Source of the DNA: an uncultured Elusimicrobia bacterium
GTDB lineage: Bacteria; Elusimicrobiota; Elusimicrobia; UBA1565; UBA9628
Reading direction: 5' to 3'
NCBI GenBank assembly: GCA_903830945.1
Contig: CAIKVT010000021.1
Location: 4,519-68,518 of the forward strand
Length of the DNA: 64,000 bases
In this document: positions 7,503 through 40,531 of the stretch, one piece after another
Numbering within the stretch: the first letter of the stretch is position 1
Layout of the letters: the number at the start of each line of letters is the position of its first letter
Program-made: the position numbers and the translations under genes
The notes under the pieces: generated by a model
Seen by the model: the letters and a program-made list of their open reading frames with translations, nothing else
Told to the model about the DNA's origin: nothing
The model's database searches: none

Positions 7503-7553
7503 AAAAATGATGAGGAATTATACAACAATTGGAAATGGCTGAATGCTCTGGGG

Positions 7554-20450: not shown

Positions 20451-22388
20451 TTAGAATTGCTTTTTTTTGATGGCGTCCAGGTGCGATTGGAGGTACTCGA
20501 TGGCCTTTCTGGGATCGATCACGCCGCCGGCCGAGCGTGTGTAGGGGTTTCCGTTGGCTATTGGATTGGAAGTCGCTTGCAGGATCTTCTTGACTTGGGT
20601 CGGAGTCAGCTCCACGCCGCTCTCTTTGGCCTTTTGCAGCAGGAGGGCGGTGGTAGCCGTCGTGTGCGGCGTCGCCATGGAGGTTCCGCTCATATGCTCC
20701 GAGAGATCCTCGTTGGGCTTATTGGCGTAGCCCTTGGCATTGAAGGCGGCGGCGATGACATCGACGCCGTAGGCGAAGACGTCGGGTTTTTGTTCAGTCT
20801 TTCCGGTGGCCGTGTTGATCACATTCTGGTTCGAGGAGAAGGAAGCGATCTGATTGAAGTAATCCACGGCCCCGACCGTTATGGCTTCGGGCGCGAAGCC
20901 GGGCTTTCGGGCGGTTCCCTCACCCTCATTGCCCGCGGCCACCACGACAACCACGCCTTGCTCGGAGAGCTTTTTCACCCAGGAGCTGAGCTGATCGAGG
21001 TCCCGGGGATCCCTGACCTTGGTGTTCGACGCGGAGATGCCCAGGCTCATGTTTACGATGTCGATGCGGTCGCCCTTGATCTTGCCTTCGGCTACGGCCT
21101 GGTTGTGGTCATAGACGTTTTTGAGGCCGTTGGCGATGGCCTGCGTGATCATCATCCCGTCGCGCTGCAGTTCCTTGGGGATGCGCTCCAAGACTGGCGC
21201 CTCCTCGTCAAGCACCTTGATGTTGATGATCTTGACCTTGGGGGCGTAAGCCAGCACGGTGGAGGCCACATGCGTGCCGTGCTCGCCCGTGTAGTTGGGC
21301 TTGCCGAAGGTGGCCTTGTTCTTGGGGTCTACATACCGGTCCTCGGTGATGACCTTGCCGTCCAGGCCGTCCGTAACCTGCCCTTTGAGGAATGGATGGT
21401 CCTTGTCCATGCCTACGTCGAGGATGGCCACGGTCACCCCGCTGCCGTCGATCTTCTGCCGCCAGAGCTTGTCTACGCGCTGCTGCCAGAGGCTTTGGCC
21501 CATGGGGTAGGACTCGAAGAGAGTGCGCCACTGCGCCTGGCTCAGATCCTTCTCTGGGATAGCCTTGACTAGTCGCACCAAGGTGGAAGGCACCAAGGGT
21601 CTTCCATCGGCGCCGATCTGGAGGGTCGTCATCTCGCCGTCCACTTGACGGATAAAATACGGTACGGATTTCGGGCAATCCTTGCCCTTGCATGTCTGTA
21701 GAGCGTCCATGGCGGCGCGCAGGATATCCTGTTTAGTTTTGAGCACGGCGCGCAGGGACTTGCCCTGCTTGCCCAGGCCCGCGTAATCCGCGTCGTCCGG
21801 GATATTCTTGGCCATGATCTCATCGATGCGGGACATGTAGCCGGTCAGCAGTTCGGGGTGGACCTTATACTTGGGATCATCGATGCGCTCGGCGTAGTCG
21901 CGTAAGGCTAAAATCAGGGCGGCCAGCTTCCTGTTAGTGATCCTGGCTATCTTGTCGGCGGGGGTGCGGCTCAGAAGCTCCAGGAGGGCGACCCCGACCT
22001 TGGTTGGGTTCTGGGTGGCCTTCGGTGCGGCCCTCGGCGCTGGCGCATCTTTCTTCGGCAACGCGGGGTTGTTGCCATCCTCCTCATCCACAGGCGCCGG
22101 CACCTCCGAGGGTTTGTCCTCCGCAGGAGCCGTCACCTTTAAGGGGAAACGGTAGAGTTCAACGTAGGCTTCGTCGTTGTTGAGGTTCGCAGCGTTCTGG
22201 AAGTAGATGCCCGGGGGCAGGCCGTAGTCTTGAAGCGCCATGATCTGTTTGATTGACAGGTTCGTCGCGGCCGTGTCATCTTTGTTTTCGTTCGGCGCGG
22301 GTTGGGCGGCCGTCGAAAACGGCGCTAGAGTCAGCGCGAAGAAGCCGGCCGCCAGCCACAGACGCAGCAGTTTCTTAGCCCTGTTCAT
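20451..22388 (-). CDS. Secreted subtilisin-like serine protease (peptidase S8)
   Basis: Catalytic triad motifs are present: DVGMDKDHP (Asp), HGTHVAST (His) and GTSMATPH (Ser). There is a signal peptide from MNRAKKLLRL (the track ORF starts 6 codons earlier), then a long N-terminal propeptide/linker. Confidence 0.85.
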   Translation of the reverse strand: MNRAKKLLRLWLAAGFFALTLAPFSTAAQPAPNENKDDTAATNLSIKQIMALQDYGLPPGIYFQNAANLNNDEAYVELYRFPLKVTAPAEDKPSEVPAPVDEEDGNNPALPKKDAPAPRAAPKATQNPTKVGVALLELLSRTPADKIARITNRKLAALILALRDYAERIDDPKYKVHPELLTGYMSRIDEIMAKNIPDDADYAGLGKQGKSLRAVLKTKQDILRAAMDALQTCKGKDCPKSVPYFIRQVDGEMTTLQIGADGRPLVPSTLVRLVKAIPEKDLSQAQWRTLFESYPMGQSLWQQRVDKLWRQKIDGSGVTVAILDVGMDKDHPFLKGQVTDGLDGKVITEDRYVDPKNKATFGKPNYTGEHGTHVASTVLAYAPKVKIINIKVLDEEAPVLERIPKELQRDGMMITQAIANGLKNVYDHNQAVAEGKIKGDRIDIVNMSLGISASNTKVRDPRDLDQLSSWVKKLSEQGVVVVVAAGNEGEGTARKPGFAPEAITVGAVDYFNQIASFSSNQNVINTATGKTEQKPDVFAYGVDVIAAAFNAKGYANKPNEDLSEHMSGTSMATPHTTATTALLLQKAKESGVELTPTQVKKILQATSNPIANGNPYTRSAGGVIDPRKAIEYLQSHLDAIKKKQF

Positions 22389-22550
22389 ATCGTCCCCTAT
22401 GACCATGGTGACAATAGGATAGGGGGGGAACGCGATTTCGTCAAGACCGGTCAGGCCTACGACGGGATAGGTCTCAAGGCCTAGGCATCATCTCCGGCGC
22501 GATCGTTGCCTTGGACCGAGGACCTGGAATGTGGTAGTCTAGTGATCGCG

Positions 22551-23450
22551 ATGTCCAAGACCATCCTCATCATCGACGACGACCAGACCTTGGTTGCGCC
22601 TCTTAAAGAAGGGCTCGAGGCCATGGGCTATCGGGTGGCGGCGGCCTTCGACGGCCAGCAGGGCATCCACTTGGCCCAGCAGGTCAAGCCGGACCTTGTC
22701 ATCCTGGATTTTTATATGCCCGGGGGCGGGGGGGCCATAGTCTACGAGCGCCTGCGCCAGGGCCAGGAGACGGCCCAGACGCCCATCGTGTTCTCGACGG
22801 TCGTCTCGATGGAGGAGGTCAAGGGCCGTATCCATCCCAGCGCCAACACCTATTTCCTGAGGAAGCCAGTGGGCCTGGGCCAGCTTGCGGCTCTCATTCG
22901 ATCGGTCCTGGGCGAGCAGCAATCGTCGGTGACGGCAGAGGGGCCGCATCTGAGCGCCCAAACACCCGCTGAGGACGCTCAGTGCGGCGGCGCGGTCATG
23001 CTGTCGTCGTCGCGGGTGCATGATCTGGCGGTGCGCGTGACTTACGCGGACACAGACCGGATGGGCGTGGTCTACTACGCCAACTATTTGCGGTTCTTCG
23101 AGCAGGGCCGTACGGAGCTCCTGCGCAGTCTGGGCTCGCGTTACCGTGACCTGGAACTCCATCGAAAGCTTTATCTTCCTGTGGCCGCGGCCTTATGCCG
23201 GTATGTATCGCCGGGTCGATATGACGACCTGCTGCTGGTGCGGACCTGGGTCTCTGCGCTGGGCAAGGCCAGCCTGAGCTTCGCCTACGAGATCCTCGAC
23301 GCGGAGAGCGCCGGTCGCCGCCTCGTCGTGGGCTGTACCCGCCACGCCCTGGTCGATGAGCTTTGGAAGCCCGCTCGGCTGCCGGACGACCTACGCACGG
23401 CGTTGTCGAATTTTTTAGGGCCGGAGCCTGTCGGTTTCAAGACCAAATAG
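22551..23450 (+). CDS. Fusion protein: response-regulator receiver domain plus YbgC/4HBT-type acyl-CoA thioesterase
   Basis: The N-terminus has a receiver domain (ILIIDDDQ.., DLVILDFYMPGGGG). The C-terminal ~130 aa has a hotdog thioesterase signature (VTYADTDRMGVVYYANYLRFFEQGRTELL). The start is taken at the MSKTILII Met. Confidence 0.75.
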   Translation: MSKTILIIDDDQTLVAPLKEGLEAMGYRVAAAFDGQQGIHLAQQVKPDLVILDFYMPGGGGAIVYERLRQGQETAQTPIVFSTVVSMEEVKGRIHPSANTYFLRKPVGLGQLAALIRSVLGEQQSSVTAEGPHLSAQTPAEDAQCGGAVMLSSSRVHDLAVRVTYADTDRMGVVYYANYLRFFEQGRTELLRSLGSRYRDLELHRKLYLPVAAALCRYVSPGRYDDLLLVRTWVSALGKASLSFAYEILDAESAGRRLVVGCTRHALVDELWKPARLPDDLRTALSNFLGPEPVGFKTK

Positions 23451-23528
23451 GATGCCTTCAGGCACATGGCCGTCAACTTATTCCCTTCAGGACGCTCAGT
23501 GCCATCGCGCTACGGGCAGGTGACGCGC

Positions 23529-24608
23529 TCAGGTGTAGGGGACGGCGATGCAGGATCGCGTGTCATGCCCGCGCAGGCGGGCCTCGCTGACGTACCATTC
23601 CCACGCGACATTCAGCAGGACCTTGATGATGCAGGCGGCAGGTACCGCGAAGACGAGTCCTAGGAAGCCGAAGATCTCGCCTCCGATCATCATGGAGAGT
23701 AAAAAGAGGAGCGGGTGCAGGTGCACGGAGTACTTGGCGATGAAAGGCTGAAACAACATCTCGTCGCCTAATCGGATGCCGACGAAGAGAGCGACCACCT
23801 GCAGGCCGGCCTTCGGGGTTCCGAACTGGACGGCGGCCGCGATGCCTCCAACGAGAGCCCCCATGACGGCGCCCAAATAGGGCACGAAGCTGGACACCCC
23901 GGAGAGGACGGCGATGGAGAGCGCTGCGTTGATCCCGAGGGCCAGAAGACCCAGGTAAGAGACCACAGTGATGGCTAGGGCCACGATGAGGATGCCGCGC
24001 AGGTAATGGCCCAGGGATGCGTCGATCTCGTTGAGCAGATGGAGGGCTTGCTCCGCATAGCGGCTCGGGGCCGCTTGGATCAAAGTCGAGATGATGAGCG
24101 GCCCGTCAAGGAGGAGAAAGAAGGTGATGAAGGGCACCAGGAAGAATAGGGAGATCAGCGGGAATAGTCTTAGAATATAGGAAGGCGCGAGCTGGAGCTG
24201 CTCCATGGCCGAGGCGTAGGCGCGGCTGGCGAGCTGCCCGATGGGCAGTCCGCTGCGCGGCAGACGTCTGGCGGCATGGGACTGGAAATCGGCCGCGAAC
24301 TTCTGCGCTCTGGCGAGATAGGCCGGGGCGTCAACCTGTAGACGTGAGGTCTCCGCGCTCACCAGAGGGAGGAGATACTGCGCCAGTAGGAAGAGCAGGA
24401 ATGCGGCCAGAAGGTAGAAGGCTAGAACGATATGGAACCGTCGCAGGCCCCGCGTCTCGACCGCGTCGATGAGCGGGTTGACCACGTAGGCTAAGGCGAA
24501 GCTTAGCACGAAAGGCATCAGGGCTTGGCGTGCCAGATAGGCGCAGTAGAGCCCCCCGGCGCAGACCATGATGGCCGGCAAGAGGGGGGCGACTCGGCGT
24601 TCGGTCAT
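23529..24608 (-). CDS. AI-2E family transporter (PerM/YhhT-like)
   Basis: 359-aa protein with 7-8 TM segments and AI-2E family conservation (FVLSFALAYVVNPLID..). Confidence 0.75.
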   Translation of the reverse strand: MTERRVAPLLPAIMVCAGGLYCAYLARQALMPFVLSFALAYVVNPLIDAVETRGLRRFHIVLAFYLLAAFLLFLLAQYLLPLVSAETSRLQVDAPAYLARAQKFAADFQSHAARRLPRSGLPIGQLASRAYASAMEQLQLAPSYILRLFPLISLFFLVPFITFFLLLDGPLIISTLIQAAPSRYAEQALHLLNEIDASLGHYLRGILIVALAITVVSYLGLLALGINAALSIAVLSGVSSFVPYLGAVMGALVGGIAAAVQFGTPKAGLQVVALFVGIRLGDEMLFQPFIAKYSVHLHPLLFLLSMMIGGEIFGFLGLVFAVPAACIIKVLLNVAWEWYVSEARLRGHDTRSCIAVPYT

Positions 24609-25141
24609 GAGGCGGGCATGCCCCCGGGCGCCGAAGAGATGCGGCGCAGACGCGCTGAGAGGAGCTGGGCGAGATGTGTCATGATCTGCACGCCGATTCG
24701 GGGGTGGTAGTTGAGGATGGACTCCAACTTGGAGCGATAAAGCAGGAATATCTGGGATTTCTCCAGGGCTGTGGCCGTGGCCGTGCGCGGCAGTTGCTCC
24801 AGCAGCGCCATCTCTCCGAAGAATTCTCCGGACTGTATGGTGTATATTTTCTGGGATTTTCCGTCAGGCCCGGTTTTGGTGAGCTCGACTTGGCCCGACT
24901 CCAGGATGAAGAGGGCCCGGCCGATGTCGCCTTCCATGAAAAGGACCTCACCTTCATGATAGGTCCGGCTGTGCATGTTCTCGACGAGATATCCCAGTTC
25001 CACGAAGCCCAGGTCTCGGAAGAGGTCCAGGGATTTGAGGAAGGCCCGCTTGCGCGAAGAGGCGGGGTCGCCGAATATCCGTTTTAAGATGCGCGGCAGA
25101 GGCATTGGGCTAAGAGCTCTTGCCGAGGAATCGGCCGGCAA
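24605..25141 (-). CDS. Cyclic-nucleotide-binding domain protein (standalone cNMP-binding, no HTH)
   Basis: cNMP-binding motifs are present: GEVLFMEGDIGRALFILESGQVEL..FGEMALL. The start may be the internal Met at about 25105. Confidence 0.75.
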   Translation of the reverse strand: MPADSSARALSPMPLPRILKRIFGDPASSRKRAFLKSLDLFRDLGFVELGYLVENMHSRTYHEGEVLFMEGDIGRALFILESGQVELTKTGPDGKSQKIYTIQSGEFFGEMALLEQLPRTATATALEKSQIFLLYRSKLESILNYHPRIGVQIMTHLAQLLSARLRRISSAPGGMPAS

Positions 25142-25355
25142 GATTGAATACCGAGCTGAAGAGATGCAGCCAGCCGGAGCGGACGGCTTGACCGAAGGAG
25201 GCGACTTGATGGTCGACTCGGTAGGTCAGGACCTCCACGGCCTGGGCTGCTTTCTTGATCTTCAGGAGGGTGATGATCATGATGACTACAAGGATGCTGA
25301 GTTCCAAGACGATGATGGCGAGGCAGGCGGCGATGAATGTCTCCATAGTAGGCAC
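25110..25355 (-). CDS. Small membrane protein (DUF948-like), tentative
   Basis: 81-aa ORF with one strongly hydrophobic TM (IAACLAIIVLELSILVVIMIITLL) followed by an amphipathic helix. It occupies an otherwise gene-free gap. Confidence 0.4.
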   Translation of the reverse strand: MPTMETFIAACLAIIVLELSILVVIMIITLLKIKKAAQAVEVLTYRVDHQVASFGQAVRSGWLHLFSSVFNLAGRFLGKSS

Positions 25356-25408
25356 TATAACTAATCGCGCCGAGCGTCGTCAATTGTGGAAATGCTACCA
25401 TCACGAGG

Positions 25409-25903
25409 ATGAATCCCTCGGCTTTTCTTCCCGCCGAGCGCAAGCGCGCTTTGTTGGTCCGCCCGGCCGTTCTGCTGGGCGTCTTCTTCGCGGACCGGCT
25501 GACCAAGTTGTGGGCCATGGAGCGCCTCGCGCCGCGGGCCGGTCTGCCGCTGCTGCCATTCTTCCATCTGACTTATGTGGAGAACACGGGCGCGGCCTTC
25601 GGTATCGGCCGCAGCCGCAACGGGTTCTTCGTGGTCTTGACGCTGACGCTGCTGGGCGCGCTTTGCTTTCTGCGCCGTCACTGGCCTCGCGAGGACCGTT
25701 GGCTGGAGAGCGGATTCCTGCTCGTGGCCGGCGGCGCTCTGGGTAATCTTTACGACCGTCTGGCCTACGGATTCGTGGTGGATTTTCTGGATTTCCGTGT
25801 ATGGCCGGTCTTTAACGTCGCGGATTCCTGCGTGACCGTGGGGGCCTGCTGCCTGGCCTGGGGTCTTTCTCGTTTGGAAAAGACGCCGCTCGGACACACC
25901 TGA
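25409..25903 (+). CDS. lspA: Lipoprotein signal peptidase (signal peptidase II)
   Basis: 164-aa ORF with the LspA motifs NTGAAFG and FNVADSCVTVGA. Confidence 0.9.
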   Translation: MNPSAFLPAERKRALLVRPAVLLGVFFADRLTKLWAMERLAPRAGLPLLPFFHLTYVENTGAAFGIGRSRNGFFVVLTLTLLGALCFLRRHWPREDRWLESGFLLVAGGALGNLYDRLAYGFVVDFLDFRVWPVFNVADSCVTVGACCLAWGLSRLEKTPLGHT

Positions 25904-25940
25904 GCATTTCTGGGCGGCGTGCTTGGCGCCGTGAGAGGAT

Positions 25941-26576
25941 TCAGCTCATCTTGTGGATGAAGTAACCCGCGCCGAAACCGAGCAAGGCACAGGTCATCAG
26001 CCCGACTGGCCCGCCGAGGATGAACCCGATCAGCCCGGCCCAGATCGCCGCCTTGCCGCCCGCGATGGTGGCGTTCCATTTATTGGGGTCATCGGGATCC
26101 TTCTTCTCGCTCGGGGTATCGCCTTGGGGCGGGGGAGTCGACGCGGTCAGGTTCGCTTTTGCTCGGTTGCTGTCGGTGAGAGGGCCCGTTGCGGTCGAAG
26201 TGGTCTGCGCTACGGCAGCGGTCGAGGCGGTCTGCGTTACGGTCGCGGCTGGGGTGCAGAGGGACCCGTCGAAAAGATGGCCGTTGTCGCACGCGCCTGC
26301 AATCTTCTTCGTGGTGTCGCTTGTTTTGGTGGAATCCACATTGCGCTTCGACATCATGTGGCCCATATAGTCGGTTAGGAAAATGCGCCAGCCTTGGGCG
26401 TTTTTCTCATCGGGTTCGCCCAATTGCGCCAGGGCGGTTTTGTAGGTGACGGAGATGGAGGCATCCTCCTTGGCCATGCTGTAGAGCTTTTGATCTTCCT
26501 TGGATAGTCCTTCCGCTGCGGCGAGGAGGGCGGAAGCCAAGACGACGAAGCAGGCCAAGGCCAGAGTCTTCTTCAT
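25941..26576 (-). CDS. Hypothetical secreted protein with a C-terminal Gly-rich TM anchor
   Basis: The signal peptide starts at MKKTLALACFVVLASALLAA. The C-terminal segment is GLIGFILGGPVGLMTCALLGFGAGYFI. No family is recognised. Confidence 0.5.
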   Translation of the reverse strand: MKKTLALACFVVLASALLAAAEGLSKEDQKLYSMAKEDASISVTYKTALAQLGEPDEKNAQGWRIFLTDYMGHMMSKRNVDSTKTSDTTKKIAGACDNGHLFDGSLCTPAATVTQTASTAAVAQTTSTATGPLTDSNRAKANLTASTPPPQGDTPSEKKDPDDPNKWNATIAGGKAAIWAGLIGFILGGPVGLMTCALLGFGAGYFIHKMS

Positions 26577-26714
26577 ATGAACCTCAGGATGAGGAAATCT
26601 GTTACGAGTAGCATAACTCTCCAAGCTCGAATATTCAAGCCCTACTCACCAGCCATATGGTATCCCATGTGGCCGCGTCGGCGCAGTGCCTAAGGTCCCT
26701 GGCGGGTCTGGGTC

Positions 26715-28106: not shown

Positions 28107-28154
28107 GTTGATCTCCCTCTCATGTCGTATATTTTATCAATTTGGTAAACTCAT

Positions 28155-28983
28155 CATGATGAGAGGCTTGGCATTGTTGCTGCCGGCTGTCCTTCTTGCC
28201 GGGTGCGTCGCCGTGCCCGGCGCGATGGACGAAGACCACCTGGCGCGTCCGCAGGCCATCACCGGGGAGGCGTTTCCTGACCTGGATTCCGGTTTCAACG
28301 AGCAGCAGAGTCTGCATTTCGCGGTGCGCGCTTACGGCAACGGCAAGGCCATGCAGACCGCTGATCTTGCTGAGACCGCGTACCAGCGCATCATGGTGGA
28401 CACCGGCCTTTCCTCCTTTCAGCCTTTGGGCGGGCGCTGCAAGATCATGATCTACGCTAACGCCGACGAGTATCGCAAGAAGACCGGACAACCCGGATGG
28501 TCGAACAGTGTGGTCGTGAGTGGTTCCATCTATTCCTACGAGGGTGGGCACCTCGACAGGATGCTCTCGCATGAGTTGACGCGTCTTATCTTCTATGATT
28601 ACATGGGTCATACCAATATAGACCACCGTTGGGTCAGCGAAGGTCTGGCGATTTATGAGGAAGACAAGGCCGGCCAACCCGCCTCGGGCGGCGTGGCTTC
28701 GCCCATGCCGGCTTGGCCTCAAGGCTGGCAGCCTTTGCCCATGGACTCTATCATCCACATGGTGCCGGCCTCGGACCGGGATCGCACGATCAGCGCCTGG
28801 CATCTTCAGGTGGAGAGCCTGGTGCGCTTTATGATCGAACGCGGCGGCCGTATTGGATTCGGCCAGTTCTTGGGCGATCTGCGTCAGGACGCCGTTTTCG
28901 ACAAGGCCGTGGCCGACGCTTTTTCGGGGACCTGGCGGGACCTCCCGGACCTCTACTCCGCCTGGGTCAGGGCTCAGCAGTGA
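28155..28983 (+). CDS. Hypothetical lipoprotein (possible HExxH-like metallopeptidase fold; uncertain)
   Basis: The lipobox signal is [17 protein letters not shown]. There is a [14 protein letters not shown] segment. The 5' part of the track ORF (27940-) is a shadow overlapping rlmD. Confidence 0.5.
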
Positions 28984-28988
28984 CGGAG

Positions 28989-31690: not shown

Positions 31691-31770
31691 ATCTCTAGAT
31701 GCATTTTGGTATCTTCTCCTTGCTTCTTTTGCTCTTTTATTAAAAATCTGTGGCGTTCCGATTGTCGCGC

Positions 31771-31795: not shown

Positions 31796-31825
31796 GGGGA
31801 AGTATGGCACTGGATCGGTTTAAGT

Positions 31826-31897: not shown

Positions 31898-31932
31898 CAT
31901 CGTTAACGAGAATGAGAACGGAGTCCTCAAAA

Positions 31933-33690
31933 ATGGCTGAAGTCGCCGTCGACATCGCGACCGTTCGGCACTCCTGCGCTCACGTGCTGGCGCAGGCCGT
32001 GCAGGACCTTTTCCCGGGAACCAAGCTCGGCATCGGCCCGGCCATCGAGAACGGTTTCTACTACGACTTCGATACCCAGCACCACTTCGTCCCGGAGGAC
32101 CTGCCCCGCATCGAGGCGCGCATGCGTGAGATAGCGGAGGCGCGTCAGGCCTTCGTGCGCGCCGAGTGCACGAAGGACGAGGCCAGCGAGTTCCTCAAAA
32201 AGTCGGACGAGAAGCTTAAGATCGAGCTCCTGGGGGACCTTAAGGATGCGACGGTCAGCTTCTATACCAACGGCCCCTTCACCGATATGTGCCGCGGCCC
32301 CCATGTCGCCGACACCGGGGAGATCCGTCATTTTAAGCTGACCTCCATCGCCGGCGCCTACTGGCGCGGCGATGAGAAGCGGCCGATGCTGCAGCGTATC
32401 TACGGCACGGTTTGGACGACCCAGGATCAATTGGACGGTCACCTTAAGATGCTGGAGGAGGCCAAGGCGCGGGACCATCGCAAGTTGGGTCAGGCTCTGG
32501 AGCTTTTCAGCATCGACGAGGCGGCCGGCCCCGGTCTCATCCTGTGGCATCCCAAGGGCGCGCGCATACGCATGGCCATAGAGGAGTGGCTCAAGGGCGA
32601 GGCTCTCCGGCGCGGCTACGAATGGATATACACCCCGCATATCGCGCAACTTTCTCTCTGGCAGACCTCGGGGCATGCCAGTTTTTTCCGGGAGAGCATG
32701 TTCCAGCCGCTGGAGGTGGAAAAGGCGCAGTATCAGCTCAAGCCGATGAACTGCCCTTTTCATATCCTCATCTATAAAAGCCGGCTGCACAGTTATCGCG
32801 AGCTTCCGCTGCGCTTCGCCGAATTGGGCACGGTTTACCGCTACGAGCGCTCAGGGGTTCTGCATGGCCTCTTGCGGGTTCGGGGCTTCACGCAGGACGA
32901 TGCCCATATTTTTTGCGCGCCGGAGAGCATCGAGTCCGAGATCGACGGCTGCATCGATTTCGCGTTGGCGGTGCTCAAGACCTTCGGCTTTGAGAAATAC
33001 ACCGTCGACCTGTCCACTTGGGATCCGGACAAGCGTTCCGACTACAGCGGCGAGGCCGAAGATTGGAAGCGCGCCCAGGGCGCCCTTGAGACCGTGCTCA
33101 AGCGTCGGGGCATCGATTTCCGCCTGATCCCGGGCGAGGCCGCCTTCTATGGTCCGAAGATTGATTTTAAGCTCATCGACGCCATCGGGCGCTCCTGGCA
33201 GTTGACTACTATCCAGTTCGATTTCAATCTTCCCGAGAAGTTCGGCCTGGAGTACGTGGCCGAGGACGGGCAGCGGCGCCGGCCGTTTATGGTGCACCGG
33301 GCTTTGCTGGGTTCCCTGGAGCGTTTTTTCGGGATCCTCATTGAACACTACGCCGGGAAATTCCCGCTGTGGCTCTCGCCGGTGCAGGTCAAGATCCTCA
33401 CCATCACGGACGCCCAGGCCGACGCCGCGCAAGGCTTGGCGCGCCGTCTGGAGGACGCCGGCCTGCGCACGGCTCTGGATCTGCGTCCGGAGAAGGTCGG
33501 CGCCAAGGTGCGCGACGCCACGCTGGAGAAGATCCCTTACATGGTTGTCCTGGGCCCCAAGGACCTCGCGGCCGGCGTGCTTTCCGTGCGCCTGCGTGAC
33601 GGCCGGCAGGTCGGCGGACTCAAAGAGGAGGATTTCATGACCAAGCTCAAGGCCGAGATCGCCGGCAAGACGGCGACCCTATCGCTATGA
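31933..33690 (+). CDS. thrS: Threonine--tRNA ligase lacking the N-terminal TGS (N1) domain
   Basis: 585-aa protein that begins directly at the editing-domain motif (RHSCAHVLAQAV). Class II catalytic and anticodon-binding regions follow (FRESMFQPLEVEK.., YRYERSGVLHGLLRVRGFTQDDAHIF). The track ORF start at 31750 would run through the tRNA. Confidence 0.9.
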   Translation: MAEVAVDIATVRHSCAHVLAQAVQDLFPGTKLGIGPAIENGFYYDFDTQHHFVPEDLPRIEARMREIAEARQAFVRAECTKDEASEFLKKSDEKLKIELLGDLKDATVSFYTNGPFTDMCRGPHVADTGEIRHFKLTSIAGAYWRGDEKRPMLQRIYGTVWTTQDQLDGHLKMLEEAKARDHRKLGQALELFSIDEAAGPGLILWHPKGARIRMAIEEWLKGEALRRGYEWIYTPHIAQLSLWQTSGHASFFRESMFQPLEVEKAQYQLKPMNCPFHILIYKSRLHSYRELPLRFAELGTVYRYERSGVLHGLLRVRGFTQDDAHIFCAPESIESEIDGCIDFALAVLKTFGFEKYTVDLSTWDPDKRSDYSGEAEDWKRAQGALETVLKRRGIDFRLIPGEAAFYGPKIDFKLIDAIGRSWQLTTIQFDFNLPEKFGLEYVAEDGQRRRPFMVHRALLGSLERFFGILIEHYAGKFPLWLSPVQVKILTITDAQADAAQGLARRLEDAGLRTALDLRPEKVGAKVRDATLEKIPYMVVLGPKDLAAGVLSVRLRDGRQVGGLKEEDFMTKLKAEIAGKTATLSL

Positions 33691-33701
33691 GGCGGTTCAA
33701 C

Positions 33702-36700
33702 ATGTCCAAGCATACCAGATTCCTGGCGCACGGCAGTGCGCTGGCCGTTCTGCTCGTGCTGGCTCCGGCCTTCGCCTCCGCTCGCGCCATCACGCAGACC
33801 ACGGCGGAGGAGGAAGCCTTCGGCGCTGGCGCGCAGATGTACCAGGAGACGGGGCGCGATAAGATGGCCGTGGTTCAGGCTTTCGAGAATTTTATGAGCC
33901 AGTTCCCGCAGAGCCCGCGCGTGGCCGATGCCAACTTCATGATCGGCGAGGCCTACCTCGATCAGGCCTTGAGCATCCTCAAGGCCGAAGCCACCGCCAA
34001 GAAGAACTCGGCGGCGCGGCTCCTGGCGCCCAAGAACCCGGCCGCAGCCGTGGCCCTGGAGAATGCCGCCAAGGCCTTTCAGGCCGTCGCCGGCGATAAG
34101 AAATCCGGGCTTGCGCCCTCGGCCCTGTATCGCCTGGGCGAGGTCTATTATAATGAAAAGGATTGGAGCCGGGCCGTCGACGACTTCCGCGACGTGGAGA
34201 AGAACTTCTCCAAGTCCTATATCGTGCCGGAGGCGCTGTTGGGGGTCATCTACGCGGACCTAGCCCTGGAGCAGTTCTCTCAGGCCGAGGCTAACCTCTT
34301 CCTTCTTGGCGAGACCGACCCTGTATTCCTTAAAGAGCCATTGGTGCTCTACGCACAGGGAATCGTGAGCTTGCATAAGGGCGACTATTCGGCGGCCGAG
34401 GCCACCTTGAAAGCGGTGAAAACCGCCGAGGCCCAGTATTACCTGGGTAAGACTTACCTGCTCTCCAAGCGAGCCTACTTGGCCGCGGCCGCTTTCGAGA
34501 ACCTCATCCGCGACTATCCGGACTCCGACTTAAAGGAAGAGGCTCAGTTCTTCATTGGTGATTCCTTCTTTTTGGCCGAGGATTTTGACGGCGCCATCTC
34601 CAAGTACCAGAAGTTCCTCTCGTTCTACCCGGACTCCCCCTTGCGCGTCTCGGCTATGTTCCGCATCGGATCCTCCTACTTTCAAAAGAAGGATTTTGTG
34701 GAGGCGCGCGCCAACTTCCAGTCCGTTCTGGACCGCTATCCTAAGGACTTCTTCGCTCCGCTGGCCCAGTACTTCATCGCCGAGTCCTATCTCGTGGCCG
34801 GGCAAGTGCGCGAGGCCATGTTCGCCTACACCAAGGTCATCACCCAGTATCCGGAGACCGCCAAGGTCTCTCCACTGGCGCACTTCAAGCTGGCTTGGAC
34901 GGGCTATCAGGTGGGGGATTACACTCAGGCCTTGCAGACCTGCAACAACTTCGTGGCTCTCTATCCCACAAACGCCTTGGCCAAGAACGTCTACCTCGTC
35001 ATGGGCAATGCCCTCATCAAGCTCAAGCGCTATCAGGAAGCTACGGCCGCCCTCCAGCGCATCATCGACCTGGCACCATCATCGGACGTCGCGGAGCAGG
35101 CCCTCTTCACCATTCTGAAGAACCAGTTCGATCAGAAGGCTTATAATTCAATCCTTACTTCCTATCAGTTCATCTTCCGACACCTGCCGCCTTCCAAATC
35201 CAAGTGGCGCAGCATGAGCTATCTTTACGCGGCCGAGGCTTATTTAACCCTCAATCAGACGGAGGAAGCCAGGGTCATCTATGAGATGATCCTCAAGGTC
35301 TATCCTGACGACCCGGCCGCCTTCTACGCGCAGGACGGCCTGGCCTGGGCTTATTCCTATCAGGGCCAGGACGACCAGGCCCTGGTGGAGCGCCAGAAGC
35401 TTAAGGCCATGCTCTCGGCCGAGACCTCGACCTTCACCTTCTCGGGATTGAACGAGTTGGGCATCGCGGATAGCCTCTATAACCAGAAGTCCTATGACGA
35501 CGCCTTCCAGCTCTATAATAAGTTCGTCGACGGCAATCCCAAAGCGTCGGAGGCGCCGTCCGCCCTCTATCGCGCGGGCATGAGCCTCTACCACCAGCGC
35601 TACTACACCCAGGCCATCGAGACCTGGCGCAAGCTTCAGGCCAACTATCCACAGGCCAAGGAGACGGTCCAGGCCGTGGTCCAGATCGCCGACACTTTGT
35701 TCCGCGCCCAGAAATACGACGAGTCCATTGCCGCCTACAGAGGCATCATCACCAACTATCCACAGAGTGAACAGCTGCCCATGGCCTACCTGCGCATCGC
35801 CCAGGCGGCCTTCAATAGCAACAATGATGATGCTGCGGTCAAGCAGGTCCGGGAGCTGGTGGCGAAGTTTCCCAAGGCTCCTGAGTCGACGGACGGCATG
35901 GATCTCCTGGAGGCTATTTTCGACCGCAATAAGTCCGTCAATTATAAGACTTTTCTGCGCGAGTTGGTCGCGGCCAACCCAGCCAGCCCCATCGCCGCGG
36001 AAGCGCAGTTCCGCCTGGCGCGGCGCTGCTTCGAGGCCAAGGACTTCGCCACGGCTGCCGTGGAGTTTCAGAAATTCAGCGTGGACTTCACCAACAATTC
36101 TCAGCTGGTCAAGGCCCAGTTCTACCTGGGGGAGAGCTACTTGAGCCAGAATGATTACGCTAACGCCATCCCCGCTTATGAGCGCCTGCTTAATAACTTT
36201 GATAAGGACGAAGACACGCCGCTGACGTTGTTCCACTTGGCCAGCGCCAATTACGCCCTCAAGAAGTACGATGAGGCGGTGAAGTACTACACCCGCCTGG
36301 GGGAGGAGTATCCCAAGGCGTCCTACGCTAAGGAGACCCAGTTCAATTTGGCCCTGGCCTACAAGGCACTGGGCAAGGCTGACTTGGCCCAATACGCTTA
36401 TCAGAAGTATATCGAGCTGGTCGGCGACACTGACCCTCTGGCCCAGTCGGCGCTCTGGGAGATCTTCAGTCTGCAGAAGGACCGCCGGGATTACGATGGG
36501 GCGCTGTCGACTCTCCAGCAGATACAAGGCCACGCCCAACCGGGTTCGGATACGCCGTTTGAAGCGACCTACCGCATGGGCGAGATTGACTTGGCCATTA
36601 ACCGGCCGGACGAGGCCATGAACATATGGGTGAAGCTTCAGGGCATGAAGCCCGCCAACAATCCTTTCCGCCTCGACGCCTTGATCAAGCTCGGCGAGGC

Positions 36701-37013
36701 CTACGAGAAGGCTTCGGACAATGAGCGGGCCGTCATCGTCTATGAGGACTTGGCCCACAACGCGGGTCGGGAGATCGCCCAGTCGGCCGCGGCCAGGGCC
36801 GCGGCCCTGCGCCGACAAGGCGGGGGGGGCAAGGCCTCCGGTGAGCCGGATCAGAAGTGGGCAGCTCCGGCGTCGCGCAAGGGTGCCATCCGTAACAAGA
36901 AGGTCCCGGCCAGCGCGCCGGCGACGGTCCCGCAGGCGGCGCCCGCTGCGGCCCCCGTGGAGAAGGCCGGGTCGCTCAATCTGCCCGGGATGACAGGCGG
37001 CGAAGGGCAATAG
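33702..37013 (+). CDS. Giant secreted tetratricopeptide-repeat protein (CpoB/YbgF-like TPR repeats many times over)
   Basis: 1108 aa with a signal peptide (LAHGSALAVLLVLAPAFASA). TPR-like ~34-aa repeats recur throughout (..EAxxxYxxxxxxYPxSxxxxxAxFxLGxxY..). The C-terminus is Ala/Pro-rich. It lies directly upstream of the tolQ-like gene. Confidence 0.8.
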   Translation: MSKHTRFLAHGSALAVLLVLAPAFASARAITQTTAEEEAFGAGAQMYQETGRDKMAVVQAFENFMSQFPQSPRVADANFMIGEAYLDQALSILKAEATAKKNSAARLLAPKNPAAAVALENAAKAFQAVAGDKKSGLAPSALYRLGEVYYNEKDWSRAVDDFRDVEKNFSKSYIVPEALLGVIYADLALEQFSQAEANLFLLGETDPVFLKEPLVLYAQGIVSLHKGDYSAAEATLKAVKTAEAQYYLGKTYLLSKRAYLAAAAFENLIRDYPDSDLKEEAQFFIGDSFFLAEDFDGAISKYQKFLSFYPDSPLRVSAMFRIGSSYFQKKDFVEARANFQSVLDRYPKDFFAPLAQYFIAESYLVAGQVREAMFAYTKVITQYPETAKVSPLAHFKLAWTGYQVGDYTQALQTCNNFVALYPTNALAKNVYLVMGNALIKLKRYQEATAALQRIIDLAPSSDVAEQALFTILKNQFDQKAYNSILTSYQFIFRHLPPSKSKWRSMSYLYAAEAYLTLNQTEEARVIYEMILKVYPDDPAAFYAQDGLAWAYSYQGQDDQALVERQKLKAMLSAETSTFTFSGLNELGIADSLYNQKSYDDAFQLYNKFVDGNPKASEAPSALYRAGMSLYHQRYYTQAIETWRKLQANYPQAKETVQAVVQIADTLFRAQKYDESIAAYRGIITNYPQSEQLPMAYLRIAQAAFNSNNDDAAVKQVRELVAKFPKAPESTDGMDLLEAIFDRNKSVNYKTFLRELVAANPASPIAAEAQFRLARRCFEAKDFATAAVEFQKFSVDFTNNSQLVKAQFYLGESYLSQNDYANAIPAYERLLNNFDKDEDTPLTLFHLASANYALKKYDEAVKYYTRLGEEYPKASYAKETQFNLALAYKALGKADLAQYAYQKYIELVGDTDPLAQSALWEIFSLQKDRRDYDGALSTLQQIQGHAQPGSDTPFEATYRMGEIDLAINRPDEAMNIWVKLQGMKPANNPFRLDALIKLGEAYEKASDNERAVIVYEDLAHNAGREIAQSAAARAAALRRQGGGGKASGEPDQKWAAPASRKGAIRNKKVPASAPATVPQAAPAAAPVEKAGSLNLPGMTGGEGQ

Positions 37014-37034
37014 GCGGCGCCCAAGGAGAACCTG

Positions 37035-37652
37035 ATGCTCGGCGACAATAGCGTGCTGGTGATGCTCAAAGACAGTTTTACCCTCATCATCCTCGGTTTC
37101 TGCTCCGTGCTCAACATCACGTTTATGATCGAGCGCTGGTGGACCATCCGCAGGGCGCAGGGCAGTGGAGACGCCATCTTGACCCACGTGCATAAGTTCC
37201 TGCAGGAGGGCAAGGCCGAGGCGGCCCAGCAGTACTGCCACAAGCATCCCTCCGCGGTCGGCCAGGTCATCTATTACGGCCTGCTGCACGCCTCGCGGCC
37301 GCGCAAGGACCTCGATGAGCTGCTCGCGAGCAAGCGTTTGGAGGAGCGACTCAAGCTCGAGCGCTATCTGGGCGTGCTGGGCACGCTTGGCAACATCGCG
37401 CCTTTCATCGGCCTTTTCGGCACGGTCGTGGGCATAATCAAGGCCTTCCGCGATCTGGCTCTCTCGGGTGGGGGCGGCCCGGCGGTGGTGGCTAGGGGTA
37501 TCGCCGAAGCGCTGGTGGCGACTGCGGGGGGCCTCGTGGTGGCCATTCCGGCGGTCATCATCTATAATTATTTCATGCGTAAGGTGAAGACCATCTCGGT
37601 AGAGATGGAGGTGGCATCGATCCGGCTGATGGTCATGCTGGGGTCCAAGTAG
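37035..37652 (+). CDS. MotA/TolQ/ExbB proton-channel family protein
   Basis: 205-aa protein with 3 TM segments and conserved C-terminal TM helices (LGTLGNIAPFIGLFGTVVGII). Confidence 0.85.
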   Translation: MLGDNSVLVMLKDSFTLIILGFCSVLNITFMIERWWTIRRAQGSGDAILTHVHKFLQEGKAEAAQQYCHKHPSAVGQVIYYGLLHASRPRKDLDELLASKRLEERLKLERYLGVLGTLGNIAPFIGLFGTVVGIIKAFRDLALSGGGGPAVVARGIAEALVATAGGLVVAIPAVIIYNYFMRKVKTISVEMEVASIRLMVMLGSK

Positions 37653-37659
37653 AGGGAGC

Positions 37660-38091
37660 ATGGCTGGAGCGAGCCAGAAGGCCGACGAGCCAATCGTCGA
37701 CATCAACGTCACACCTCTGGTGGACGTGTGTCTGGTCCTGGTCATTATCTTCATGGCCGTAGCACCCATGGCCATGACCTGGGGCATCACCGTGCTCCAT
37801 TCCAAGGCCAAGACCGCCGAAGGCAAGGCCTCCATCGAGGAGAACGTCCAGGTCAAGCTTACGGTCGACGGCAAGCTCACGGTCAATGGCGCGGCCGTTC
37901 CTGCCGGCGGGCTGGCGGGCAAGATCTCGGAGGCCCTCGTGCGCAGCAAGGACAAGATGGTCACGGTCACGGCTGACGAGGGCAACCATGTGGGCGATGT
38001 GGTGGAAATCCTGGACACGGCCAAGCAGGCTGGCGCGGCCAAGGTCGCGATCTTGAAGAACGAGACCGCGCCTCCGGCTCCTAAGGGATGA
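37660..38091 (+). CDS. ExbD/TolR biopolymer transport protein (copy 1)
   Basis: 143 aa with the INVTPLVDVCLVLVIIFM TM signature. Confidence 0.85.
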   Translation: MAGASQKADEPIVDINVTPLVDVCLVLVIIFMAVAPMAMTWGITVLHSKAKTAEGKASIEENVQVKLTVDGKLTVNGAAVPAGGLAGKISEALVRSKDKMVTVTADEGNHVGDVVEILDTAKQAGAAKVAILKNETAPPAPKG

Positions 38092-38510
38092 GAATGTCAC
38101 GCACCGAATCCTCATTGGATGGCGACGATATCGTCTCGGGCATCAATGTGACGCCCTTGGTGGATGTTTGCCTGGTTCTGGTCATTATCTTCATGGTGAC
38201 CGCACCCATGCTTTCGGATCCGGTCATCAAAGTCGACTTGCCAAAGGCTCATACTAAGGAAGGAGAAGAGAAGGAAAAGATCACCATCACCCTGGGTAAG
38301 GACGGCCGCATGGCCTTGGATTATAAGGAATACAAGACCTTTGAAGCCATGGAGCCGGAACTCAAGGATAAGCTGGCCGGCAGCGAGTCCAAACTCATCA
38401 TCCTCAAGGCGGATGAGAACGCTTTACACGGCAGATTGGTGGACCTCATGGCCAAGGCCAAGGACGCGGGGGCCCAGTCGTTGACCATAGCCACGGAACG
38501 AAAGAAATAG
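38088..38510 (+). CDS. ExbD/TolR biopolymer transport protein (copy 2)
   Basis: 140 aa with the same INVTPLVDVCLVLVIIFM signature. The start overlaps the previous stop. Confidence 0.85.
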   Translation: MRMSRTESSLDGDDIVSGINVTPLVDVCLVLVIIFMVTAPMLSDPVIKVDLPKAHTKEGEEKEKITITLGKDGRMALDYKEYKTFEAMEPELKDKLAGSESKLIILKADENALHGRLVDLMAKAKDAGAQSLTIATERKK

Positions 38511-38528
38511 CGAGGTGTCGAAAGAATC

Positions 38529-39578
38529 GTGACGCAGGCGCGCTTGCCAATGTCGGTGACGGCCTCCATGGCCCTGCATGTCGGGGGAATCTTCCTTTTC
38601 GTGCATATCTCGCAGATCGGGATCAAGGCGAAGTCCGTCGACATCCAGAATGTCGATATCATTCGTGTGTTTAAGCCCACTCCCGCGCCGCAGGTCAAGG
38701 TCAAGGCTCCGCCGCCGACCATCAAGGATTTCTTGAAGATGGCCCTACCGGCCGTGCATAGGCCCCAGCTCATGACCATGCAGGCCAAGCTCCCGGATAT
38801 CCGCCGGCCCCTGCTGCAGGCCACGCCCAAGCTCGAGGATAGGCACATGCAGCAACTGGCGAAGCTGGACGCCCTCGACCTCAATAAGCGCCGCGTGGAC
38901 GAGGCCCGGATCGATACGAAACTTGAAGAGCGCCATACGACGGCCTTAGCCGCCCTGCCGCGCCTGGAAGATGTGGGCCGGCGGCAGGTGCGAAACCTCC
39001 CCGCCGCCATCAAGCTTGAAGAGCAGCGTCAAGACGCCGTGGCTCTTAAGTCCATCCAGGGCATGGCGGTCTCGCCGACGCGCCGCGGCGTGGCCCCGGC
39101 GGAGGTGCTCCAGGAGGCCACTCCCCAACAGAGTTCGCGGTTGGCAAGGATCACCAGCTTCCTGCCGACGGCTTCCGAGTCTGTCCAGCTTCAGCCGCGG
39201 GCCGCGGAGCCTCCGCCTATGATGAAGAAGATCGAGATTGCGCCTCCCTCGCCCAAACGCACGGCCTCCGTCCAGCAGGAGAAGAAGAGAACCGTGGAGA
39301 TCGAGGGTCCCTTGGCCAATCGAAGGGTGCTGTCCTACGATGTGCCTCAGTTTCCGGATTGGGCCAAACAGCGCAACATCATCGAGGCCGAGGTCGTGAT
39401 CCTCTTCTATGTGGACTCGGAAGGCAACGTCCTCTCGGACATGCGCGTCGAACACACTTCCGGTTACGGCCAGCTCGACCGCCTGTCCATGGACAGCCTG
39501 CGTAACTGGAAGTTCGTTCCCATCAGCAGCAGTGAAAGGCAATGGGGAAAAATCACATTCCGTTTTATTCTGGAGTGA
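38529..39578 (+). CDS. TonB/TolA-like energy-transducer protein (TonB C-terminal domain)
   Basis: 349 aa with an N-terminal TM, a long Pro/Lys-rich periplasmic linker and a C-terminal TonB-C fold (AEVVILFYVDSEGNVLSDMRVEHTSGYGQLDRLSMDSLRNWKFVP). Confidence 0.75.
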   Translation: MTQARLPMSVTASMALHVGGIFLFVHISQIGIKAKSVDIQNVDIIRVFKPTPAPQVKVKAPPPTIKDFLKMALPAVHRPQLMTMQAKLPDIRRPLLQATPKLEDRHMQQLAKLDALDLNKRRVDEARIDTKLEERHTTALAALPRLEDVGRRQVRNLPAAIKLEEQRQDAVALKSIQGMAVSPTRRGVAPAEVLQEATPQQSSRLARITSFLPTASESVQLQPRAAEPPPMMKKIEIAPPSPKRTASVQQEKKRTVEIEGPLANRRVLSYDVPQFPDWAKQRNIIEAEVVILFYVDSEGNVLSDMRVEHTSGYGQLDRLSMDSLRNWKFVPISSSERQWGKITFRFILE

Positions 39579-39580
39579 CA

Positions 39581-40531
39581 ATGAAGAGCACGAAACAAGT
39601 CCTCTGTTTTTCGGCGGGTCTTTTGGCCGCGTTATGGGCCCTCCCGGCGGCAGCCGCCACGGCCGGGGGTGAGACCGGCTTCCCCGCTGAGGTTGAGATC
39701 AAGGCCGCGAGCGGGGCGAACAAGCTCAACGTGGTCAAGCCGCCATTGAGCATCGAGGTGGACTCCTTCGAGACCATCCGCCCCTCTTTGGAGCCCGACC
39801 AGTCGTTGCTTTTAGCCGTCTCGCCCCTGACCGTTTCTTGGCGCCGCACCCATCCCGAGTATCTGCATAATCGGCGCGTCATTGAGCCCTGGCTCATGAC
39901 CTTCAGCCAGAGGCCGGGCATAGCGCTGCGGGTGCGCGACCAGCTTTTCGCTTTCCTGGGGCGCAAGCTCGACCCTAAGGAGGCTAAAGGTTACGCCTGG
40001 AATCTGACCATCGCCGACGAGGAAGGCCGGGTATTCCATCACTATGAGAGCTCCAGCGACCCGCCGGAGGAGCTCGTCTGGAGCGGCCAGAACGACCAAG
40101 GCGAGTGGATCAAGGCCGGCCGCTCTTATTCGGCCGTCTACACTTTCACAGACTCGCTCGGATCCCCGCATACCACCGTTGGCAAGCCGATCTTGTTCAA
40201 AGGCATCGTGCATCAGGAAGATACGGGCCTGCATGTGACTCTCGATTCCTCGGTCCTCTTCGGCACCACCAAGGCGGCAACCGAGATCGTTCACCCCGGA
40301 GGCGTGGATCTGCTGCGCTCCGCGGCCGACCTCATCAAGCGGCGCTCTACGGGTATCCCCATATCGGTGCGCGTCTTCGCCAACACTAAAGAGCTCGCTG
40401 ATGCTCAGGGCACCGTGGTCCAGAGTGTGCTCATCCACGAACTCATGACCATGAGCAAGAATGTGGCCGTGGAAGGGGCCCGGGCCGCCTTCTCCGATCA
40501 GAGGGTGGAAATCGTCCTCCTAAATCGGTAG
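39581..40531 (+). CDS. Secreted hypothetical protein, possibly with a degenerate OmpA/Pal-like C-terminal domain
   Basis: There is a signal peptide (MKSTKQVLCFSAGLLAALWALPAAAA). The C-terminus (VTLDSSVLFGTTKAATEI..ISVRVFANTK..RVEIVLL) resembles the OmpA-like peptidoglycan-binding fold in spacing but lacks the GHTD motif. It sits in the Pal position of a Tol-Pal-like cluster. Confidence 0.4.
   Translation: MKSTKQVLCFSAGLLAALWALPAAAATAGGETGFPAEVEIKAASGANKLNVVKPPLSIEVDSFETIRPSLEPDQSLLLAVSPLTVSWRRTHPEYLHNRRVIEPWLMTFSQRPGIALRVRDQLFAFLGRKLDPKEAKGYAWNLTIADEEGRVFHHYESSSDPPEELVWSGQNDQGEWIKAGRSYSAVYTFTDSLGSPHTTVGKPILFKGIVHQEDTGLHVTLDSSVLFGTTKAATEIVHPGGVDLLRSAADLIKRRSTGIPISVRVFANTKELADAQGTVVQSVLIHELMTMSKNVAVEGARAAFSDQRVEIVLLNR

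Follow-up and report, generated by a model that had tools for sequence, protein, structure and literature searches.

A receiver domain fused to a YbgC/FadM-type thioesterase in uncultured Elusimicrobiota: a candidate response regulator with an acyl-thioesterase output

Receiver (REC) domains switch conformation, and often dimerise, upon phosphorylation of an aspartate, and they gate attached enzymes by lifting an occlusion, as in CheB, or by altering oligomerisation, as in PleD and WspR. Hotdog-fold enzymes of the 4HBT/YbgC class are dimers or tetramers with their active sites at subunit interfaces. Fusion of REC domains to ordinary metabolic enzymes is a recognised trend (PMC5847659). In YbgC enzymes, a tyrosine, an aspartate four residues further on and a histidine seven residues after that aspartate are crucial; the catalytic aspartate is Asp18 (Asp15 in Shewanella), and its replacement by asparagine inactivates the enzyme (PMC5479800). 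Here we describe a gene encoding a REC domain and a YbgC-type thioesterase in a single polypeptide, located at 22551..23450 on the + strand of a 64,000-nucleotide stretch of DNA (hereafter the window) from an uncultured Elusimicrobia bacterium (GenBank assembly GCA_903830945.1, contig CAIKVT010000021.1, positions 4,519 to 68,518).

The YbgC proteins, tol-pal-associated acyl-CoA thioesterases (E. coli 1S5U/5T06, P. aeruginosa 5V10, and those of H. influenzae and H. pylori, HP0496), share with the C-terminal half of this protein the hotdog fold (root-mean-square deviation (rmsd) 1.2-1.5 A, 32-40% identity) and the Y-x3-D active-site core within a DTD motif, and the fusion also passes the YbgC/FadM subfamily model. 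Unlike every solved YbgC protein, it begins with a REC domain followed by a linker; it also lies outside a tol operon, scores under the tol-pal equivalog cut-off and has, as 5V10 does, a tyrosine at the position of the crucial histidine. The layout of N-terminal REC, linker and C-terminal enzyme is that of the CheB methylesterase, the diguanylate cyclases PleD and WspR, the HD-GYP protein RpfG and the RssB/PP2C types, and the logic expected to be common with CheB, PleD and WspR is that phosphorylation of one aspartate would gate the enzyme by relief of occlusion or by oligomerisation. The fusion differs from these enzymatic-output response regulators in that its output is a hotdog thioesterase predicted to act on acyl thioesters, a type of output not found in the literature searched, in that its linker is unusually long and disordered, and in that no cognate kinase or pathway is known.

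One reading frame with a REC domain and a hotdog thioesterase

The gene is complete, with an ATG start and 299 codons followed by a stop; translation of the window gave no internal stop and no frameshift within 22551-23450 (+), and the linker is also free of stops. Pfam placed Response_reg at residues 5-116 (E 6e-19), 4HBT at residues 171-252 (3.6e-13) and 4HBT_2 at residues 163-285 (7.8e-12) of the polypeptide, which bears out the receiver-thioesterase fusion proposed in a preliminary description of this DNA. The two motifs quoted in that description, DLVILDF (residues 48-54) and VTYADTD (residues 163-169), were both recovered, and its coordinates were exact. The description had also pointed out that the two domains might turn out to be separate genes. 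An artefact of this kind, in which two neighbouring genes are merged by a sequencing or assembly error or by a missed stop, is a negligible possibility: a single frame holds REC and thioesterase not only in the window but also in 54 independent genomes at species level (GTDB species representatives), the same REC + 4HBT architecture of ~300 amino acids occurs in all 120 homologue clusters listed, down to 49% identity, and a protein 100% identical to the fusion protein (P0001) is present on 10-11 public contigs from different samples. Because the two-domain protein recurs in the 120 listed clusters and the 54 species, a chance open reading frame (ORF), an assembly chimera and a missed stop or frameshift were rejected.

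The REC domain (residues 1-121, 22551..22913, +) scored 68.7 bits against PF00072 (cut-off 30.2), and AlphaFold2 predicted a (beta-alpha)5 fold with a predicted local distance difference test score (pLDDT) of 84-98. Its key residues are the acidic pocket D10/D11, the phospho-acceptor D53 (codon 22707-22709, within DLVILDF), S82/T83, F102 at the aromatic switch position and K105-P106; we take D10/D11, D53, S82/T83 and K105-P106 to be the equivalents of CheY D12/D13, D57, T87 and K109. In receivers generally, the acidic pair follows beta1, the acceptor aspartate closes beta3, a threonine or serine closes beta4 and a lysine, usually as Lys-Pro, follows beta5. This signature was invariant or nearly so in an alignment of 24 homologues with 51-76% identity (alignment A1) and was also kept across the 54 species-level orthologues, in which the REC domains share a mean pairwise identity of 61%. 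Conservation of the phospho-acceptor, suggested earlier as a check, was complete, with D53 invariant in both sets. The top named NCBIfam match of the domain was a single-domain DivK-like family, under its cut-off. On these residues and this predicted fold, the REC domain looks canonical and phosphorylatable.

The thioesterase domain (residues 157-290, 23019..23420, +) was recognised by 4HBT and 4HBT_2 (PF03061, 50.1 bits with a cut-off of 20.6; PF13279, 46.2 bits with a cut-off of 25.5) and by TIGR00051, the YbgC/FadM subfamily model (83.0 bits, cut-off 68.7), as well as by phmmer and Foldseek. Its top NCBIfam match, the tol-pal equivalog TIGR02799, gave 93.2 bits and did not reach the cut-off of 141.35; the tol-pal YbgC equivalog NF008065 gave 66.1 bits, likewise below its cut-off of 185. 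In a Foldseek search of the Protein Data Bank (PDB), the structure nearest to the hotdog half was 5V10, the tol-pal YbgC of P. aeruginosa (TM 0.93, 40% identity and an rmsd of 1.2 A across 130 columns), and further Foldseek/phmmer matches were Bartonella 3HM0 and E. coli YbgC 1S5U, 5T06 and 5T07; the matches to YbgC structures, including the acyl-CoA complexes 5T06 and 5T07, had rmsd values of 1.2-1.5 A and TM about 0.9. With TIGR00051 passed and the P. aeruginosa and E. coli YbgC structures nearest, the assignment to the YbgC subgroup made in the preliminary description stood, and by profile and fold comparison the thioesterase is of YbgC type at family level. The positions crucial in YbgC are occupied by Y165, D169 (codon 23055-23057) and Y176, the last being a tyrosine at the histidine position. 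Y165 and D169 lie inside YADTD, which was found in 54/54 fused orthologues, so that the predicted catalytic aspartate, like D53, is invariant both there and in alignment A1. The thioesterase domains of these orthologues share a mean identity of 67%, above the 61% of REC, and the minimum identity across the 54 is 40-46%. This conservation shows that at least 54 species have kept both halves of the protein under strong constraint.

The two domains are joined by a low-complexity linker that is predicted to be disordered (residues ~122-156, 22914..23018, +). AlphaFold2, run with alignment A1, returned two confident domains with a linker pLDDT below 50 at residues 126-153 and a predicted TM-score (pTM) of 0.50; because of this pTM value, no defined packing or docking between the domains is predicted. 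Across orthologues the linker ranges from 15 to 112 amino acids (median 37) and consists of 28% Pro and 23% Ala. The Foldseek search of the PDB found no solved chain spanning both a REC and a hotdog domain.

Distribution and origin of the fusion

The distribution of the fusion was followed in a species scan of the best 80 loci among GTDB species representatives, of which 54 were fused and all 80 came from Elusimicrobiota or unnamed 'bacterium' metagenome-assembled genomes (MAGs). Similarly, every homologue carrying a source name came from an Elusimicrobia/Elusimicrobiota MAG. When 1.84 billion representatives at 50% identity were searched exhaustively with HMMER, only 93 proteins reached E<=1e-30; within the top 150 of this search both domains were present in P0016, P0121, P0122, P0125, P0126, P0131 and probably P0124, with Pfam confirmation of both for P0122, P0126 and P0131. 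Three other candidates (P0172, P0209 and P0215) were rejected as REC-thioesterase fusions, Pfam giving a tandem 4HBT-4HBT arrangement; one of these came from Planctomycetota. The fusion searches covered relatives of the fusion protein, and among these the genuine REC-4HBT fusions with a source name were all from Elusimicrobiota. One member is labelled 'CheY-like chemotaxis protein/acyl-CoA thioesterase FadM' by JGI, and the architecture is therefore already visible in databases. Full-text literature searching turned up no publication that describes a response regulator made of a receiver and a thioesterase, which fits the earlier remark that a thioesterase would be an uncommon output domain. 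The fusion would be a so far undescribed response regulator, specific to its lineage and with a thioesterase as output, within the known theme of REC domains joined to metabolic enzymes (PMC5847659).

The closest stand-alone relatives are YbgC/FadM-like thioesterases of other Elusimicrobiota (such as L070, L073 and L083), which have an orthologous domain (about 48-61% identity) and lack REC. In a neighbour-joining tree of thioesterase domains, built with no bootstrap, the fused proteins formed one clade and the stand-alone Elusimicrobiota thioesterases formed sister groups. Four REC-less genes (L052, L053, L057 and L059) were nested inside the fused clade, and the first three of them share the synteny with AI-2E-family and cyclic-nucleotide (cNMP)-binding genes that characterises this clade; tblastn at E<=10 detected no REC remnant in any of the four. 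Since the fused proteins form one clade with REC-less genes nested in it, one fusion followed by a few secondary losses is the simplest reading, and from this sequence comparison the fusion appears to have arisen once within Elusimicrobiota, with REC lost later in a few lineages. The nesting of REC-less members therefore suggests that the thioesterase can work without REC, which would be a dispensable regulatory add-on. A single-domain receiver encoded ~4 kb upstream of the stand-alone orthologues was considered as the source of REC, and this origin was unsupported, the 25-30% identity being like that of any REC pair.

A proposed thioesterase output under phosphorylation control

The combination of a phosphorylatable-looking REC domain and a YbgC-type thioesterase suggests an orphan response regulator whose output would be a YbgC/FadM-type hotdog acyl-CoA (possibly acyl-acyl carrier protein, acyl-ACP) thioesterase, with phosphorylation modulating hydrolysis, a reading to which we assign a probability of about 0.6. 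We infer both the regulation by phosphorylation and the substrate of the thioesterase. The protein is regarded as an orphan because no histidine kinase was found in the 64-kb window using 60 hybrid kinases as phmmer queries; these queries matched two REC-bearing ORFs only, the fusion gene and one at 4462-4851, and no kinase was conserved adjoining the fusion gene. In the mechanism proposed, a histidine kinase encoded outside the window would phosphorylate Asp53, and the phosphorylated REC domain would then alter thioesterase activity, either through a REC-driven change of oligomeric packing or through release of an occluding REC as in CheB. Given a long, floppy linker and active sites that are formed between subunits, a rigid allosteric coupling would be less likely than either route. 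The acyl-CoA/acyl-ACP pool that feeds membrane-lipid metabolism would then shift with the signal. A REC-gated thioesterase is plausible, being consistent with all residue-level tests. The stronger form of the idea, in which a two-component phosphorelay directly switches the thioesterase on or off and so controls acyl-CoA/acyl-ACP pools and hence membrane-lipid composition, is tentative, and we would place it slightly short of even odds.

Several points weigh against phosphorylation-controlled hydrolysis. No kinase is encoded in the window or conserved nearby, so that phosphorylation of Asp53 is assumed from residue conservation alone, and the long, variable and disordered linker, together with the lack of a predicted interface, offers no structural route for regulation. 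The third crucial YbgC residue, histidine, is replaced by Tyr176, although the aligned position in P. aeruginosa 5V10 is a tyrosine too. The commonest neighbours of the gene, an operon of AI-2E-family and cNMP-binding genes, say nothing on the substrate, and lipid-related neighbours occur in a minority of loci. The host organisms are uncultured, and thioesterase activity and its regulation are predicted only.

With a linker predicted to be disordered and no interface predicted, a serious alternative also stays in play, in which REC is a phosphorylation-dependent docking or localisation module, or a phosphate sink, and catalysis is unregulated, the constitutive thioesterase being recruited to a partner or site or simply oligomerising a receiver of the single-domain type. 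A long variable linker with no predicted inter-domain contact suits tethering better than allostery, the persistence of REC-less orthologues in the clade indicates an enzyme that works alone, and the best named match of REC is the single-domain DivK-like family, below its cut-off. Against this, both domains are strictly co-conserved over the wide divergence noted above, which suggests functional coupling, conserved operon structure points to no docking partner, and recruitment would itself be a form of regulation and so overlaps with the explanation preferred here. This alternative is considered unlikely, if to be taken seriously.

The reverse direction of signalling can also be envisaged, with the hotdog domain as the input, an acyl-CoA-binding metabolic sensor that modulates phosphorylation or dephosphorylation of REC and passes lipid status into a phosphorelay. 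Domain order alone leaves the direction of signalling unfixed, no kinase lies near this orphan gene, and cyclic-nucleotide signalling genes are frequent neighbours. However, the invariance of YADTD in all 54 fused orthologues and the fold of active YbgC enzymes indicate retained catalysis, a REC domain N-terminal to an effector is the standard layout of response regulators, and we know of no precedent for a hotdog domain acting as input to REC; an input role is thus regarded as very improbable.

Which cellular activities bacteria place under direct phosphorylation control can be read from response regulators that have enzymes as outputs, and a phosphorylation-controlled thioesterase would add acyl-thioester and lipid metabolism to these activities. 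That a lineage has hard-wired a thioesterase to a signalling domain suggests that its activity is conditionally needed. If the reading as a thioesterase-output regulator is true, no earlier response regulator would have had a hotdog thioesterase as its output, and a large clade of uncultured Elusimicrobiota would have post-translational, signal-dependent control of its acyl pools. The fusion would further give a natural way to approach what YbgC enzymes do in the cell, since their activity would here evidently need regulation. The fusion protein is small and soluble, which makes the idea of regulation accessible in vitro.

The Tol-like cluster and the gene neighbourhood

The preliminary description had set the fusion against a Tol-Pal-like cluster about 14 kb away, stating that this cluster lacks its usual ybgC and treating the fusion as the displaced copy. 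The distance was accurate (23450 to 37035, the start of the TolQ-like gene, = 13.6 kb). The cluster spans 33687..40531 (+) and was defined with Pfam and NCBIfam, and with AlphaFold2 and Foldseek for the last gene. It begins, immediately ahead of the TolQ-like gene, with a gene for an 1108-amino-acid TPR protein (33687-37013, +). This protein has CpoB/YbgF-like repeats, scored 324 bits against TIGR02795 (cut-off 90.1) over nine stretches and also matched BamD/YfiO-like models; it resembles the Tol-Pal accessory protein enlarged into a giant with many repeats. Its gene is followed by a TolQ/ExbB-like gene of the MotA/TolQ/ExbB family (37035-37652, +), two TolR/ExbD-like genes of the ExbD/TolR family (37660-38091 and 38088-38510, both +) and a gene for a TonB_C protein (38529-39578, +). 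The best matches of the former were to TolQ (123 bits, cut-off 221) and of the latter two to TolR (72 and 97 bits, cut-off 127), and the force transducer matched the TonB_C domain only; these scores do not tell a Tol motor apart from one of Ton type.

The last gene of the cluster (39542-40531, +, probable true start 39581) encodes a secreted 329-amino-acid protein that is specific to Elusimicrobiota and unusually conserved there (62-100% identity across >120 clusters), with no Pfam or NCBIfam match and with nothing significant in sequence comparisons with OmpA-family proteins and the PDB. AlphaFold2 predicted the first ~105 residues to be disordered and gave a confident model from about residue 110 on, and Foldseek matched the C-terminal ~130 residues to OmpA/MotB-type peptidoglycan-binding domains, the best being MotS (9LJM, E 1.5e-6), with further matches to H. 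pylori MotB, PA0833, YfiB, the C-terminal domain of OmpA and, at 7.6e-4, Pal. As no conserved lipobox cysteine was found in it, the protein is not a Pal-type lipoprotein; going by the modelled fold, a Tol-like motor may have in this protein an analogue of Pal or MotB that is not a lipoprotein. A separate OmpA-family protein encoded at 43428-44429 had MotB, MotD and TssL as its best matches.

Set beside the canonical Tol-Pal system (TolQRA-TolB-Pal-CpoB), the cluster likewise has a CpoB-like TPR protein, TolQ-like and TolR-like proteins, a TonB/TolA-type C-terminal domain and an OmpA-like fold, but it differs in having two TolR paralogues, the 1108-amino-acid multi-repeat TPR protein and no Pal-type lipoprotein, its TolQ/TolR-like proteins fall below the equivalog cut-offs, and no PD40 or TolB_N match indicative of TolB was found among the window proteins scanned, which did not include every ORF. 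A tol-pal call requires proximal tolB and pal (PMC12204202). The earlier label 'Tol-Pal-like' is accordingly fair as a loose description, supported by the best matches to TolQ and TolR, the TonB_C domain, the CpoB-like repeats and the OmpA/MotB-like fold, while membership of the cluster in the Tol-Pal system is not established.

The further suggestion that the Tol-Pal system has its own YbgC in the fusion, displaced from the cluster at 33687-40531, brought under phospho-control and working with that cluster in envelope or outer-membrane lipid homeostasis, draws on the best sequence and structure matches of the thioesterase, which are tol-pal YbgC proteins (5V10, 1S5U), on TIGR02799 as its top NCBIfam match and on the absence of any other thioesterase in the cluster, where Pfam and NCBIfam found none. 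It was also favoured by one locus from the MAG UBA9628 (L012, contig DMMY01000032.1), in which a TPR-TolQ-TolR-TolR-TonB-like string runs on the same strand into the fusion gene. There, positions 183-8852 hold nine genes on one strand in the order TPR, TolQ, TolR, TolR, TonB-like, OmpA-like-fold gene, 415-amino-acid protein, short ORF and REC-YbgC; the counterpart of the 1108-amino-acid TPR protein has 885 amino acids, and the 415-amino-acid protein gave weak Pfam matches of outer-membrane-barrel type (UPF0164, TraF_2, FlgD_ig).

This arrangement was, however, seen in L012 only, a TolQ-like gene being present anywhere in the locus in 1/54 fused loci and absent from the fetched flanks of the other 53. 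The TIGR02799 score (93 bits with a cut-off of 141) falls under the tol-pal equivalog threshold, and the 13.6 kb that separate fusion and cluster hold unrelated genes, including those for a P-type ATPase and threonyl-tRNA synthetase (ThrRS). According to a survey from 2025, ybgC is conserved upstream of tol-pal only in gamma-, beta- and alpha-proteobacteria and in Acidithiobacillia, with the tol-pal loci of Elusimicrobia treated separately (PMC12204202), and ybgC is found in almost every phylum irrespective of Tol-Pal, probably with functions outside it (PMC8871954). The stand-alone sister orthologues, which have no adjoining tol genes, lie instead in a conserved same-strand string (L070 3539-13993, with parallels in L073, L077, L079, L083, L085 and L086) comprising, in order, the single-domain receiver, an unknown gene, AccA, a class-I (DeoC/LacD-type) aldolase, phosphofructokinase, the thioesterase, a Wzy_C/TPR protein resembling O-antigen ligases, a tRNA U5 methyltransferase and UvrD. 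Because the ybgC-tol linkage is proteobacterial, the orthologues lie elsewhere and L012 stands alone, a cluster that lacks a thioesterase is no anomaly, and there is nothing to connect the fusion with the cluster; a displaced tol-pal YbgC was therefore rejected as the main reading and is held to be distinctly improbable. We infer that the fusion enzyme does not belong specifically to a Tol-Pal system. This corrects an over-generalisation, in that linkage of ybgC to tol is a proteobacterial feature and its absence elsewhere is not meaningful.

Around the fusion gene itself, which looks monocistronic in the window, a gene for an S8 subtilase (20451..22406, -, PF00082) diverges from it across 144 bp, and an operon lies 78 bp downstream in convergent orientation, on a separate transcript. 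This operon consists of a gene for an AI-2E-family transporter (23529..24608, -, PF01594), upstream of it a gene for a 166-amino-acid cNMP-binding protein (24605..25105, -, PF00027), and a small ORF. Neighbours were counted on Pfam annotation, with fused loci having enough flank as denominators. The AI-2E/cNMP operon was convergent downstream within 10 kb in 42/46 fused loci and within 1.5 kb in 33/46, the cNMP-binding gene co-occurring with AI-2E in nearly all loci. In the window (23529-25346, -) and its equivalents in L003-L071, the small ORF of the operon encodes 76-83 amino acids, and often 0-15 bp separate the stop codons of the fusion and AI-2E genes, a convergence tighter than ordinary synteny. 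The divergent S8 protease gene (4/38) was a neighbour in the window's own sub-lineage only.

Neighbours with a lipid theme were a GT21 glycosyltransferase immediately upstream in the same orientation (9/42) and an upstream FabA-like double hotdog, usually with an ApeP-like gene (9/35). As tblastn at E<=1e-5 found no GT21, FabA-like or ApeP-like gene in the window, these neighbours belong to other sub-lineages only, and they give a hint of acyl-lipid metabolism from a minority of loci. In two loci of the crown sub-clade (L005 8285-9960 and L006 8134-9788), genes for a double-FabA-like-hotdog protein of 388-395 amino acids and an ApeP-like protein of 163 amino acids are divergent from the fusion gene; together they recall the paired ApeI/ApeP dehydratases that aryl-polyene clusters contain, and no other recognisable domain of such clusters was present among the listed neighbours. 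A 1023-amino-acid TPR/AAA_16 cyclase is encoded directly upstream of the fusion gene in L003. Two contigs with an identical fusion protein (L001 5423-5686 and L002 5402-5665) have a HTH_Tnp_1 transposase-like ORF after lspA, where the window and its 148-kb source contig have an unannotated gene and a TRAM/U5 methyltransferase gene; this difference points to a strain-level rearrangement a short way downstream.

Elsewhere in the window, the second receiver gene (4462-4851, +) encodes a single-domain REC protein of 129 amino acids, 24% identical to the REC domain of the fusion, and follows a gene for a 496-amino-acid protein with no Pfam match (2945-4435). The window is rich in cyclic-nucleotide signalling genes, with an EAL-domain gene at 1067-2248 (-) and a CHASE2-adenylate/guanylate cyclase gene at 49181-51457 (+) in addition to the cNMP-binding gene at 24605-25105 (-). 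The cyclase gene is divergent from adjoining genes for a FecR-domain protein (46354-47718, -) and a TPR protein (47700-49076, -). Further downstream, an 1178-amino-acid protein with two phosphatidylethanolamine-binding protein (PEBP) domains and five PKD domains is encoded at 54689-58225 (+).

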